From: Noviherbaspirillum sp.
Lineage (GTDB): Bacteria > Pseudomonadota > Gammaproteobacteria > Burkholderiales > Burkholderiaceae_D
Assembly (NCBI GenBank): GCA_035626875.1
Contig: DASPMV010000007.1
Span: forward strand, 19,848 to 83,847
Direction of reading: 5' to 3'
Length of the DNA stretch: 64,000 bases
Part shown: piece after piece, positions 8,422-12,775 of the stretch
Numbering within the stretch: the stretch's first letter is position 1
How the letters are laid out: every line of letters begins with the position of its first letter
Notes under the pieces: generated by a model
Databases searched by the model: none
What the model saw: the letters and a program-made list of their open reading frames with translations, nothing else
Told to the model about the DNA's origin: nothing
Made by a program: the position numbers and the translations under genes

Positions 8422-8796
8422 ATGTCCGCGCACAAATTTTTTCCGCGTGGAAATTTATTTTTTTACGTAACGAATTAGGACATCCAATATCCATGCGGTT
8501 TTCCAAGGCAAATGCTCTGGAAAGCCCCTATTTTTCAGCATTTCATTTAAGAAACCTATATTTGACGGAGCACAAACGGCGATTCTGTTCTTGTCAACTC
8601 CCGCATTTATGGCATTGTTCCTGTGACTAAAAGACGGTAATCTCGGCCCTTGATCACGTTCTGACCGGTCCTCCAGAAGGCCGCCGCCGAGCCCAGTTTC
8701 CCGGCGCGAGGGAGGGTATCTCAGACCCTGTCCAAGCCAAGCGGAGAACATGCGCCGCGCCCCCGGTCCATACAATACGAACAAGGGTAATGCGAC

Positions 8797-10239
8797 ATGC
8801 TTAACGTCTCCAATTCTGCATCGACGACCCAGCCCGTGCTGGTATTGCGCCTGACCGGGCGCAGCGGACAGCCGTGTCCCTATACCGAAACGCTCCGGGA
8901 GCACGGCCTCAATTTGATCGACTGCTTCAGTCTTGAATCCGCCTTCCAGGCTGTCGATAGCGGCTGCCGGGTCGGCCTGCTGGTCATCACCCAGGAATCC
9001 GAGCTCGCGCACATCGACAAGTGCGAGCCCTTCGTCAGCAACAACCGCGTGTCCTGGGTCGGCCTCGTCGCGCAGGAGCTGATCTCGATGCCGCGCATGC
9101 GTGAATTCATCGGTGAGCACCTGTTCAACTTCATCACCCTGCCTGCAGACCTCGATCACATCGTCCTCACACTGCGCCATGCCTGGGGCATGGCCTTCAT
9201 GCGCGATCTCAAGCGCGATGCCTCGCCGGCGCCGGCGCCGGACAACGCCGAGTTCGTCATGGTCGGCAGGACGCCGCAGATGCAGCAACTGTTCAGCCAG
9301 CTCCACAAGGTAGCGCGTACCGACGCTTCGGTGCTCATTACCGGCCCCTCGGGCACCGGCAAGGAACTCGCCGCACTGTCTATCCACCGGCAGTCCGGGC
9401 GGCGCGACGCGCCCTTTGTCGCAGTGAATTGCGGAGCGATCGCTCCGCAGCTGTTCCAGTCCGAACTCTTCGGTTACGAGAAGGGCGCATTCACCGGCGC
9501 CAGCCAGCGCAAGATCGGCCGCATCGAAGCAGCGCAAGGCGGCACGCTGTTCCTCGACGAGATCGGGGACATGCCCTTCGACATGCAAGTCAACCTGCTG
9601 CGCTTCCTGCAGGAGAAGACCATCGAGCGCGTGGGCGGCAACGACCCGATCGAGATCGATGTGCGTGTGATTGCCGCCACACATATCGACCTTGCCGAGG
9701 CGGTACGCCAGGGACGCTTTCGCGAGGATCTGTACTACCGCATCAATGTCGTCTGCATCAGTATGCCGCCGCTGGCCGACCGCGGCCAGGATATCGAAGA
9801 CATCGCCAAGCACTACTTCAACCAGTTCGCCAGCATGCACAATCGCAGCCTGCGCGGATTTTCCAAGGCAGCAATGAACGCGATGCTGAGTCACTCATGG
9901 CCCGGCAATGTGCGCGAGCTGGTTAACCGCGTGCAGCGTGCCACGGTGATGGCAGAAGGCCGCTTCATTCAGCCCGAAGACCTCGGCCTGGATCGGAGCA
10001 ACGATCAGTCGCAACTGATGTCGCTGGAGGACGCGCGCGCCGCGGCCGAGCGAACCATGATCCGCAGGGCGCTTTCCCAGTCACGCAACCAGATCTCGCG
10101 CGCCGCAACGCTGCTCGGCGTATCGCGCGTCACGCTGTACCGTCTGATTGAAAAGTACAACATCAGGCCGGAGACGGGAACGCCGGGCCACGCGCCTTTC
10201 TTGAGCAGCGCCAAGCCGGACCTCGAAGTTCATAAGTAG
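8797..10239 (+). CDS. Sigma54-dependent activator (bEBP) with VpsR-like atypical receiver
   Basis: Walker A GPSGTGKE, intact GAFTGA, Walker B LFLDEIG, WPGNVREL, C-terminal Fis HTH; N-terminus lacks canonical REC DD/K pattern. Confidence 0.92.
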   Translation: MLNVSNSASTTQPVLVLRLTGRSGQPCPYTETLREHGLNLIDCFSLESAFQAVDSGCRVGLLVITQESELAHIDKCEPFVSNNRVSWVGLVAQELISMPRMREFIGEHLFNFITLPADLDHIVLTLRHAWGMAFMRDLKRDASPAPAPDNAEFVMVGRTPQMQQLFSQLHKVARTDASVLITGPSGTGKELAALSIHRQSGRRDAPFVAVNCGAIAPQLFQSELFGYEKGAFTGASQRKIGRIEAAQGGTLFLDEIGDMPFDMQVNLLRFLQEKTIERVGGNDPIEIDVRVIAATHIDLAEAVRQGRFREDLYYRINVVCISMPPLADRGQDIEDIAKHYFNQFASMHNRSLRGFSKAAMNAMLSHSWPGNVRELVNRVQRATVMAEGRFIQPEDLGLDRSNDQSQLMSLEDARAAAERTMIRRALSQSRNQISRAATLLGVSRVTLYRLIEKYNIRPETGTPGHAPFLSSAKPDLEVHK

Positions 10240-10391
10240 TCATTGCAGCGACGTCTTCCGGGTCGAAATAAGCATCCCTCCCGGCGCAACAAGATGATGT
10301 GAAGAGCATGACGTCGTTGCCGCGGGAGCGGGGCCGGATGCCTTTCTACCCCTCTCCGCCACGCCCCCGTTCACCATACCGCACGCGCAAG

Positions 10392-11381
10392 CTACTCGCG
10401 CCGCTCACCATCCTTTGCCGCGTAGCTGCGCAGCACTTCCGCCAGTCGGCTCGCTGCTGGCGTGGTGAACCATGGCCGGCCGTATATCAGGTAGAGCATC
10501 GACCGGTACACTTGCTTGTCACCCAAGGGAAGACAAGCAAGCTGGCCCTGGTCCAGCCACTTCTGCACGCGATGCTTCGGCAGCCATGCATAGCCCAATC
10601 CTTCGCACACCGCAGCGACGACTGTGTCAAAACTGTTCATCGTCCATCGCCGTATCTGCTTTGATCCGCATGCGGCCGGCTTGCCGGTGCCACTCCCCGG
10701 CCCCATCTCGATCTGAATGTGCTGCGCGAGATCCATCGAACTCGGCTCGCGCTCGAGCAGCATGAGCGGATGCGCGGGATGCGCAACGGCGACGTACTCG
10801 ACCTCGGTCAGCGGCTCACCAAGGTAGCCAAGCGGAACGCGCTCGCCGATCGCCAGGTCGACGTTTGGATCGCGCACGATGTCTTCCGCCTGCAGAACAG
10901 GCACCTCGCGCAGGCGTACGTGTGCCGCCCCTTTGCCGATCTCGGTGAACTTGCTCAGGGCCTGCGTAAGCACATGCACGGGGAAGTTGTGGTCGACGAC
11001 GAGCCGCACTTCATCGCCCCATCCCTGGCCAAGGTTCTTGGCGAAGGTTTCCAGTTCAACTGCGTCCTTGAGGACATTGCGGGAGCGCTCGAGGAGCGCA
11101 CGTCCCTCCGGTGTGAGGATGGCCTTGCGCCCCTCGATGCGGAGCAACGGTGTGCCCAGCTGTTCCTGGAGTTTTGACACGGTGTAGCTGATGGTGGACT
11201 GGCTGAGGTGCAGCGATTTGGCCGCTTCCGCAAAGCCGCCGCAGTCGATGACCGCGTGGAAAATCCGCCATTGCTTGAGACTGACGTAGAGGTTGTGGAT
11301 GTCATGCGGCCGTGAGCGGTAGGTTGCACGCCCGCTGTCATGCCTTGCTTGCTTTAATTCTTGCGATCTCGATTGCGTCAT
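10392..11381 (-). CDS. LysR family regulator
   Basis: GGFAEAAKSLHLSQSTISY HTH and substrate-binding domain; convergent with the bEBP. Confidence 0.9.
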   Translation of the reverse strand: MTQSRSQELKQARHDSGRATYRSRPHDIHNLYVSLKQWRIFHAVIDCGGFAEAAKSLHLSQSTISYTVSKLQEQLGTPLLRIEGRKAILTPEGRALLERSRNVLKDAVELETFAKNLGQGWGDEVRLVVDHNFPVHVLTQALSKFTEIGKGAAHVRLREVPVLQAEDIVRDPNVDLAIGERVPLGYLGEPLTEVEYVAVAHPAHPLMLLEREPSSMDLAQHIQIEMGPGSGTGKPAACGSKQIRRWTMNSFDTVVAAVCEGLGYAWLPKHRVQKWLDQGQLACLPLGDKQVYRSMLYLIYGRPWFTTPAASRLAEVLRSYAAKDGERRE

Positions 11382-11557
11382 AGTGCTTCCCTCGTATTCA
11401 GAACGGACGACCGCGACATGGATGAGGCGTCCCGCATTGACTCCCCATTCATCGCACTGCTCGCCGGTGTTGCCGGATGTGACTGCGTGGTTGGCATTGC
11501 ATGGCGTAGACGTGTTATCCCTCCTGCACTCCGTGCCGTGGTCGGACGCGAGCTTCT

Positions 11558-11573
11558 AGCAAAACATACGCCC
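11558..11573 (-). promoter_or_regulatory. Putative sigma54 -24/-12 promoter for the LysR gene
   Basis: Minus strand GGGCGTATGTTTTGCT: GG-N10-GC with TTGC, pointing at the 11381 start. Confidence 0.5.
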
Positions 11574-11980
11574 GTGCTGGCAAAGCACTGATTTACCTCG
11601 CTTTTCGGCTTGCGTCCCGCCCGCGGCTGTCCTGAGGTGTATCAGCGACGTTGTGACCAACATTGGTGCACAGCAGGACACGGCCGTTGCCCGCATGAAT
11701 TGGCTCCTGCATGCTTGAGAACGTTCGCGCGTCGGCGACGGCATTCGCGTACCGAATCAGAGGAATACTTCATGAAAATCGATCATTCCAGTCTCTCCGA
11801 CCGCGCTGCACGTGCCTCGTTTTTCCATCGATAAAGCACAAAGATTGCGAATGACTATCGAAATTTCCTCAAGATGTGATGTCGAGAGATGTAAAGCGCC
11901 GTGCTCAGAGACGGCGCGTACGGCGCTGCAAGAGGACAGCGGCGAAGTCGGGGTGGCGGCGCATGCATTTCCGTACCAAC

Positions 11981-12021
11981 AAAAAAAACCCGCCACGCCT
12001 GCTTGCACAGACAATGGCGGG
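11981..12021 (-). terminator. Rho-independent terminator of the candidate sRNA
   Basis: CCCGCCA-U-UGUCUGU-GCAA-GCAGGCG-UGGCGGG followed by U8; GNRA loop and G-U pairs work only on the minus strand. Confidence 0.85.
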
Positions 12022-12086
12022 AACCGGAGAGGGTAATACGTCTTGGTCAGCGTGGCCACAGGGCACGCCGCTTCGACGTCGATCTA
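11981..12086 (-). ncRNA. Candidate sigma54-dependent base-pairing sRNA (~105 nt)
   Basis: Bounded by a consensus sigma54 promoter and an intrinsic terminator; 5' hairpin, unpaired AUUACCCUCUCC seed; no convincing ORF. The 5' end is estimated from promoter spacing. Confidence 0.7.
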
Positions 12087-12097
12087 CCCGGGATATC

Positions 12098-12112
12098 GCA
12101 AGTGGCGTGCCA
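12098..12112 (-). promoter_or_regulatory. Sigma54 -24/-12 promoter
   Basis: Minus strand TGGCACGCCACTTGC, a perfect TGGCACG-N4-TTGC match. Confidence 0.85.
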
Positions 12113-12250
12113 CTTCTGCAAACGCTTGATTCGTTTACGCTTGTCCTGCATCCCTCAGAAAATCCGAGTGGGCATCGTCCAAAAGTGTCACCCTGGCGTT
12201 CATTTGCTGCGCGGACTTCACGTGGGGCATGCGTCCGCTCAATCGGCAAT

Positions 12251-12280
12251 AAAAAAAAGGCGTACCTTTCGGCACGCCCT
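12251..12280 (-). terminator. Rho-independent terminator of the DUF4148 gene
   Basis: GGGCGTGCC-GAAA-GGTACGCCT followed by a T-run on the minus strand. Confidence 0.85.
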
Positions 12281-12304
12281 TCATTGCTCTTGATGACCCA
12301 GAGA

Positions 12305-12595
12305 TTAGCCGCCGAAATACAGCGGACGGCCCGATTGGTTGCGCACTGCCTGGACGACCTCGGCACGCACTTCCTCGCGGCTCCTCGTCGATGCGACTTG
12401 CGCATGCTCGATGAACTCGCTGTTGCCGGCGAGGCGCTCTTCAGCGCGTGCCTGCTCGAGCTCAGCACGCACTTCCGCACGGGTCGTGGTCGAACCCTGG
12501 TTGACGTGCTCGACAAAGATACCGTTGTCGGCCGCGGAGGCGCTGCCCGTTGCTGTAAATACCGCGATGGCTGCGACGACTTGTTTTGCGTTCAT
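12305..12595 (-). CDS. DUF4148 family small exported protein
   Basis: GGGGAG RBS, signal peptide, twice-repeated TRAEVRAEL/SREEVRAEV motif. Confidence 0.8.
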   Translation of the reverse strand: MNAKQVVAAIAVFTATGSASAADNGIFVEHVNQGSTTTRAEVRAELEQARAEERLAGNSEFIEHAQVASTRSREEVRAEVVQAVRNQSGRPLYFGG

Positions 12596-12775
12596 GTTGA
12601 GGCTCCCCATAGATAAATTCGATAAATGTGCTAAGCCGGGCTCGGTGCAAGCTTTCCCCGTCTCTGTGGCGATATATGTCGCCCATCGATAAGTCGCAGT
12701 GTAGAGATTGCGCGGATCACAAAAAAGACGAATAATCGCAAGATACTATTTCTAAATCAGAAACAATAGACAACG

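Follow-up and report, generated by a model that had tools for sequence, protein, structure and literature searches.

The window analysed here, a stretch of 64,000 nucleotides from Noviherbaspirillum sp. (contig DASPMV010000007.1, assembly GCA_035626875.1; positions refer to this stretch unless a contig or locus is named), contains a gene for a bacterial enhancer-binding protein (bEBP) with a VpsR domain, a convergent lysR gene and, behind a -24/-12 promoter, a predicted small RNA (sRNA). The source genome, called the query genome below, is ~71% complete. The RNA represents a new family of σ54 sRNAs within a BrfA-like amyloid regulon and is not part of the LuxO/Qrr-like feedback loop which a first-pass annotation of this DNA had proposed. 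With a probability somewhat above even, it is a genus-conserved sRNA which shares its σ54 promoter design with lysR, stands together with lysR under the BrfA-like bEBP, and represses mRNAs other than that of the activator through the sequence UCUCCGGUU. The gene order, with the bEBP gene pointing towards lysR and the RNA gene and these two pointing towards it, is kept in the genus. The features of the locus are as follows.

8562 to 8619, plus strand: conserved elements upstream of the bEBP gene (TTGAC..ACAAA and ATTTATGGCATTGTT), from an alignment of 37 upstream regions
8784 to 8794, plus strand: ribosome-binding region of the bEBP gene, AGGGTAATGCG, ending 2 nt before the ATG at 8797; the ribosome-binding site (RBS) is conserved, its pairing with the RNA is not
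8797 to 10239, plus strand: σ54 bEBP of 480 aa with VpsR domain, GAFTGA and Walker motifs intact, without receiver Asp
10392 to 11381, minus strand: LysR regulator (domain match), convergent on the bEBP gene, with a conserved N-terminal extension
11559 to 11573, minus strand: -24/-12 promoter of lysR, GGGCGTATGTTTTGC
11582 to 11593, minus strand: site like that of integration host factor (IHF), 20 bp upstream of the lysR -24 element
11628 to 11641, minus strand: candidate upstream activating sequence for lysR, TACA-N5-GGACA
11880 to 11893, minus strand: another, more distal activating box, immediately downstream of the terminator of the RNA; seen by eye in many relatives and uncounted
11981 to 12086, minus strand: predicted small RNA of ~106 nt, its start inferred from the -12 element
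11981 to 12021, minus strand: Rho-independent terminator, consisting of a hairpin (11989 to 12021) followed by 8 U (11981 to 11988)
12022 to 12030, minus strand: invariant core UCUCCGGUU, likely the functional seed, single-stranded in the query fold
12030 to 12040, minus strand: seed proposed by the first-pass annotation, within the variable part of the RNA
12098 to 12112, minus strand: -24/-12 promoter of the RNA, TGGCACGCCACTTGC
12120 to 12131, minus strand: IHF-like site, 19 bp upstream of the RNA -24 element
12177 to 12189, minus strand: candidate upstream activating sequence for the RNA, GACA-N5-GGAC
12255 to 12610, minus strand: DUF4148 gene upstream of the RNA, which has a terminator of its own, is unconserved at this place and is a possible source of read-through

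Judged by its conservation, the RNA gene is real. The RNA bounded by a -24/-12 promoter and a terminator, which the first-pass annotation had described, is present in the sequence and conserved in the genus: a covariance model matched 31 of 43 Noviherbaspirillum genomes with one strong copy each, and blastn found the RNA in 21/36 genus genomes and 0/24 genomes of other families. None of the claims depends on the unpublished genome G249. Outside the genus, the model gave five weak matches among 145 genomes (best E 9e-4), four of which were treated as chance. The exact RNA pattern was found at 30 loci, namely 20 in Noviherbaspirillum, five in other or unassigned Burkholderiales/Proteobacteria and five in other phyla, the latter being assumed to be chance. 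No paralogous copy was found in the query genome, and a single weak second match (E 0.048) occurred in 1/43 genomes. The conserved parts of the gene are the promoter, the nine-base core and the terminator. The core was invariant in 28/28 aligned copies, which had been chosen by the core motif, and likewise in a blastn-derived set of 22. In the terminator alignment 93.8% of the cells are paired, 4/14 pairs show two-sided changes and the covariation score was reached by 0/500 shuffles; kinship among the genomes inflates these covariation counts. The distance between promoter and core ranges from 36 to 255 nt across relatives and this stretch is unalignable. No small open reading frame within the RNA is conserved among 24 genomes. 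The query RNA folds with a minimum free energy z-score of -3.1 and leaves the core open. Rfam contained no match for the RNA at the gathering cut-off and none at E ≤ 1 in five loci; the only sub-threshold match in the region is a long non-coding RNA (E 8.5), located elsewhere than the RNA. Among the genomes without the RNA, G012 retains an orphan upstream box (L101:8700-9560), G014 the lysR promoter (L071) and G002 the lysR -24/-12 elements without a box (L100).

The RNA and lysR promoters share their design. The -24/-12 promoter of the convergent lysR gene, listed as possible by the first-pass annotation, was confirmed and is conserved, being found at 27/29 lysR loci, and the RNA promoter was found at 26/26 loci with enough flank. 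Upstream of the -24 element, the distance to an ACA-N5-GGAC box is 76-78 bp in 26/26 RNA promoters; for lysR promoters it is 66-68 bp in 25/27 (77 bp in one, no box in one), and the two distances differ by one helical turn. IHF-like sites, scored with an IHF consensus, stand 19-20 bp upstream of -24 in 22/26 RNA promoters and 26/27 lysR promoters; where several promoter candidates existed, the choice favoured those with such a site. Among 25 σ54-like sites in the query genome, box and IHF site occur together only at the RNA promoter. A looser scan of this genome returned five sites, and the two with an IHF site are the RNA and lysR promoters. The strict pattern matched five times in five near-complete genomes, always at the bEBP/lysR/RNA locus. 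As the simplest reading of these promoters, the bEBP would bind the ACA-N5-GGAC box, and the adjacent VpsR-domain bEBP likely switches on both the RNA and the lysR promoter. A sequence resembling the box, CAT-N4-GGACA, is found in the reverse complement of an end primer of the footprint probe used for BerB, as given in the methods of that paper (PMC5552954).

The bEBP with an intact GAFTGA motif was confirmed and consists of a VpsR domain (PF20161, E 1e-6), Sigma54_activat and HTH_8. An orthologue is present in 39/42 genus genomes. The usual motifs for σ54 competence were found in nearly all of 41 orthologues (GAFTGA 38, Walker A 40, Walker B 38, R-finger 41), and the query genome contains rpoN. 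The receiver Asp of VpsR aligns with a Val in the query bEBP, and none of the 41 orthologues has an Asp at this position. Since GAFTGA is kept and the receiver Asp is missing, the protein is neither a LuxO nor a σ70-using VpsR. The LuxO-like activator of the first-pass annotation was not borne out: LuxO is phosphorylated at D47 of its receiver domain, but the query bEBP has no phospho-acceptor Asp at the aligned position, the NCBIfam LuxO model scores 270 bits against a cut-off of 800, and the neighbours are fap-type genes and not a quorum relay. The conserved elements at 8562-8619 are probably the σ70-type promoter region of the bEBP gene. They belong to a non-coding block (8562-8650) which is strongly conserved genus-wide and comprises TTGAC..ACAAA, ATTTATGGCATTGT and AAAAG..GTAA.CTC. 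One genome, G075, has two near-identical copies of the bEBP locus on contigs C9 and C21, possibly by assembly duplication. In LysR, the conserved N-terminal extension of ~30 aa (..YRSRPHDIHNLY..) precedes the helix-turn-helix (11290-11381, minus strand).

The amyloid connection comes from the neighbourhood of the bEBP gene in relatives. In Pseudomonas, brfA is a reverse gene downstream of fapA-F and is required with RpoN for fap expression (PMC9207406); BrfA senses c-di-GMP (PMC13101488). Because the bEBP gene in relatives faces fap-type genes, as Pseudomonas brfA does, the protein is not LuxO-like. Fap-type genes stand beside the bEBP gene at 10/39 genus loci, many of which are cut by contig ends, flank 10/14 orthologues of other genera and are found at 10/20 of the distant VpsR-domain loci retrieved. 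The genus clusters lie between the bEBP gene and lysR and encode several small secreted proteins together with a C39 peptidase and a FapF-like barrel, which matches FapF at E 1e-4. The cluster is absent from the query window and scattered over the genus tree, which was derived from a quick, unfinished search; because of this scatter it is likely ancestral and was lost repeatedly, the query lineage included.

Ten genus loci (L076:3400-8010, L078:2736-6699, L086:4356-7777 and seven more) carry this non-canonical fap-like cluster. It contains 3-5 small secreted proteins of 80-180 aa with a common signal peptide, an MDxVTAG motif and Asn/Gln/Val-rich tails, next to the C39 peptidase gene and the oppositely oriented gene of the FapF-like barrel. 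The small proteins have neither Fap repeats nor Pfam matches and their look-alikes in the Atlas are unnamed clusters; possibly, they constitute a new amyloid subunit family. In other genera, σ54 operons beside the bEBP orthologue (L146:3893-5719, L147:5596-7380, L148:5576-7270 and L150:5884-7455) encode secreted Gly/Ala-rich proteins of 520-610 aa, with C39 and FapF-like genes present; two of these proteins were tested and have no canonical Fap repeats. Genes for a C39 peptidase and a FapF-like barrel are also located at the start of query contig C16 (1-1410), and the query genome may hold a fap-type cluster elsewhere.

That a σ54-dependent sRNA is encoded beside its activator is well known from Vibrio and enterobacteria. 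The closest known system by layout is BrfA/fapA-F of Pseudomonas fluorescens, in which a σ54 bEBP gene lies reversed downstream of a σ54-driven fap operon (PMC9207406, PMC13101488); exactly this layout is found in the genomes G125, G143 and G099. The likeness to BrfA is one of layout in orthologues and of σ54 competence. In contrast to BrfA, the query locus is without fap genes and the regulon consists of an sRNA and LysR; the accessible parts of the BrfA papers report no sRNA (PMC9207406, PMC13101488). Burkholderia BerB and Vibrio VpsR are likewise activators of biofilm matrix genes (PMC5552954, PMC6158489), and the N-terminal domain of the query bEBP resembles VpsR. BerB has GAFTGA and activates berA, which also encodes a regulator, from a σ54 promoter, comparable to the proposed step from bEBP to lysR, but it is described without an N-terminal sensory domain (PMC5552954), whereas VpsR is without GAFTGA and uses σ70 (PMC6158489). 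For neither protein is an adjacent sRNA target reported in the accessible text (PMC5552954, PMC6158489). The Vibrio LuxO-Qrr system (PMC3262071; see also PMC2632942) shares a σ54 sRNA beside the bEBP which likely activates it, but the query bEBP has no receiver Asp, pairing with the activator mRNA is not conserved, the RNA is single-copy and no Rfam Qrr model matches. Membership in Qrr was rejected, as neither a Qrr model match nor a conserved pairing with the activator RBS was found. The toxic/double-hairpin sRNAs of RF02278 and Bordetella S17 resemble the RNA in their UCUCC-containing unpaired stretch before the terminator and their length of 50-110 nt (PMC5688073, PMC4603805, PMC7011215, PMC11722255); the RNA differs from RF02278, which has two CU-rich stretches and two hairpins, by a single CU stretch, a single hairpin and a σ54 promoter. 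Membership in RF02278 was rejected too: at a cut-off as loose as E ≤ 10 the model does not match the RNA, but it does match other loci of the query genome. These are two above the cut-off and three weaker ones (C22:118755-118817, C77:3996-4058, C15:25328-25390, C19:20590-20654 and C66:18925-18982). In the literature searched, no σ54 sRNA was found for Noviherbaspirillum or for a fap/BrfA regulon, with subscription journals, including a 2024 BrfA paper, outside reach.

In the mechanism proposed, the VpsR-domain, BrfA-like bEBP would bind the ACA-N5-GGAC box and act on the promoter by looping via IHF. Its input would be c-di-GMP, by analogy with BrfA and BerB, and it would activate both the RNA and lysR from their σ54 promoters. 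The RNA would then pair through the invariant UCUCCGGUU, probably with Hfq, with the GGAGA-type RBSs of several mRNAs, and would repress these without feedback on its activator. Situated at the foot of the terminator, the invariant unpaired stretch with UCUCC is most likely an anti-RBS seed, by analogy with CU-rich Burkholderia sRNAs, which are predicted to cover RBSs (PMC5688073), and with Bordetella S17, for which an RBS-pairing site was shown (PMC11722255). The intrinsic terminator with U-tract and the conserved unpaired seed are as in Hfq-dependent trans-acting sRNAs.

Several results weigh against this proposal. No conserved mRNA target was found, in searches which were not genome-wide across species. 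Perfect AACCGGAGA sites before start codons were listed from 5, 43 and 3 genomes, and no gene was common to all among the matches listed, with two of the lists missing about a quarter of the sites by the last letter. Five candidate target genes failed or were equivocal. A core site conserved in the bEBP or lysR transcripts was not found either, nor was Hfq in the 71%-complete query genome. For several relatives, folding predictions place most of the core in base pairs (unpaired: 2-9 of 9 bases). Regarding the promoters, other bEBPs are encoded in the query genome as well, the box was derived from the same promoters used to score it, it was not seen at distant fap promoters, and the strict pattern had no match in 2/5 near-complete genomes. 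Concerning expression, an RNA-library contig from one soil-metatranscriptome study is 100% identical over 12025-12293, but it crosses the RNA promoter, and DUF4148 read-through or DNA are possible sources. Since it spans the promoter and carries neither strand nor ends, it cannot show a discrete RNA. At 12287-12670, the DUF4148 gene lies under an RNA-library contig, the adapter ends of which are found near the terminator and the upstream region of this gene.

Among the five target candidates, an EAL/GGDEF gene was rejected because its site falls within the coding frame and is unconserved, a PRC-barrel gene because the site is private to the query, and a WspA-like and a ccmE gene because they were found in only one and two of five relatives, respectively. 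The gene of a chalcone-isomerase-like exported protein (query contig C22:67669-68270) has a perfect AACCGGAGA RBS, which is also present in two close relatives; a CGGAG-type RBS was found in 3/5 distant matches, not in the closest of them. This gene may be considered a weak lead.

The first-pass annotation had linked RNA and bEBP by base pairing, and its 11 contiguous pairs (one G-U) between the minus strand of 12030-12040 and 8784-8794 were reproduced. A Qrr-like feedback, by which the RNA represses its own activator via CGUAUUACCCU, would at most be a recent gain in the small clade of the query, and is very unlikely. In its favour, a helix of at least 11 pairs with at most one G-U, formed over the Shine-Dalgarno sequence by nt 1-70 of the RNA and start regions from -25 to +5, occurs at only 4 of 2368 query-genome genes (called by a crude script), and this rarity explains why the match drew attention, although it was picked post hoc. 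The rank of the bEBP start region among the 2368 was 1 using the 11-mer as query, which is circular, 38 using the 26-nt linker, 629 using the conserved core and 807 using the whole RNA. The two closest relatives retain seven contiguous pairs, G018 forms another duplex of equal strength (percentile 0.02), and a betaproteobacterial sRNA repressing a σ54 activator has a precedent in Bordetella S17 (PMC11722255). On the other hand, the proposed seed is outside the invariant core, on its 5' side, and 7 of its 11 bases are paired in the predicted query fold. Across 24 genomes, the same-register helix has 11 bp in one, 7 bp in two, 6 bp in one and ≤ 5 bp in 20. In four close relatives the bEBP site is identical to that of the query; the helix has 7, 7, 5 and 5 bp there, and compensatory changes are absent. 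The first nine seed columns are 38-62% conserved, the target columns 54-100%. When any register was allowed, the energies of the cognate duplexes had a median at the 59th percentile of 1200 background start regions, which were taken from the query genome for all species; a percentile below 0.05 was reached in 2/24 genomes, the query and G018, and the query value with the whole RNA 5' part was 0.12. In Vibrio, by comparison, the luxO-pairing region is conserved in all Qrrs (PMC3262071). Thus, with ≤ 5 bp in 20/24 genomes and a median percentile of 0.59, pairing was rejected as a conserved feature: the complementarity is neither conserved nor compensated in relatives, and beyond the query the pairing is mostly at chance level. 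Of the LuxO/Qrr-like circuit, the σ54 RNA, the σ54 promoter of lysR and the likely shared activation by the bEBP stood, while the base-pairing feedback and the LuxO-type protein did not.

Two further explanations dispense with mRNA pairing, and both are improbable. The RNA could bind a protein or sponge another RNA by means of the core and the base of the stem (UCUCCGGUUCCCGYCA). The invariance indeed extends into the terminator stem, in which 6/14 pairs never vary, and the search for a conserved mRNA site was negative; it also counts for this explanation that Vibrio is known to have a sponge adjacent to a LysR gene (QrrX/QrrT). Yet no complementary non-coding partner stood out among the matches listed for the 71%-complete query genome, in a scan too noisy to use, and UCUCC is also present in the RF02278 RNAs of this genome, which are thought to be anti-RBS. 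Alternatively, a leftover fap promoter could fire a short transcript without regulatory product, its terminator insulating lysR. The unconserved 5' part of the RNA, its absence from 12/42 genus genomes, with G014 and G012 keeping lysR and its promoter without the RNA, and the possible read-through origin of the expression contig would agree with such a vestige. It fits poorly with the complete promoter and phased box at 26/26 loci and with nine unpaired bases that do not vary among lineages with 76-94% identity of their bEBPs; a bare terminator would need neither.

For the origin of the repressing sRNA favoured here, one outgroup genome of another genus, G125, provides a lead. Opposite its bEBP gene, the product of which is 70% identical, stands a genuine fap operon (FapC E 9e-18, FapF E 3e-90, three Fap repeats per subunit). 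The promoter of this operon has the box at 77 bp and an IHF-like site at 19 bp, which is the geometry of the RNA promoter. A hairpin 36 nt after the fapC stop codon is the only match of the RNA model at E ≤ 0.1 in this genome (E 9e-4) and has GUUCCCGCCA...UGGCGGG in common with the RNA. The query genome contains a single hairpin of this type, which is therefore not a generic terminator there. In the proposed sequence of events, a fap operon would have lost its coding genes, its promoter would have been joined to the fapC terminator, and the seed would have been gained afterwards; a deletion of this kind would explain the variable length and the unalignable 5' part of the RNA. Against this stand the missing UCUCCG seed in the G125 hairpin and the dependence on this single outgroup genome; the hairpin was not found in the other fap operons examined. 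We tentatively suggest, at less than even probability, that a fapA-B-C deletion joined the terminator 3' of fapC to the σ54 promoter of the fap operon, and that the remnant gained its invariant seed and today acts as the post-transcriptional branch of a biofilm switch based on c-di-GMP and σ54 in Noviherbaspirillum, alongside LysR and the non-canonical small-subunit amyloid export cluster.

The locus illustrates that a striking 11-bp complementarity in one genome can be accidental. It also offers a small, testable regulon and, for an activator of the BrfA type, a precisely defined candidate binding box, and may be an example of an sRNA that was born from an operon, the ancestral state of which would still be visible in G125.

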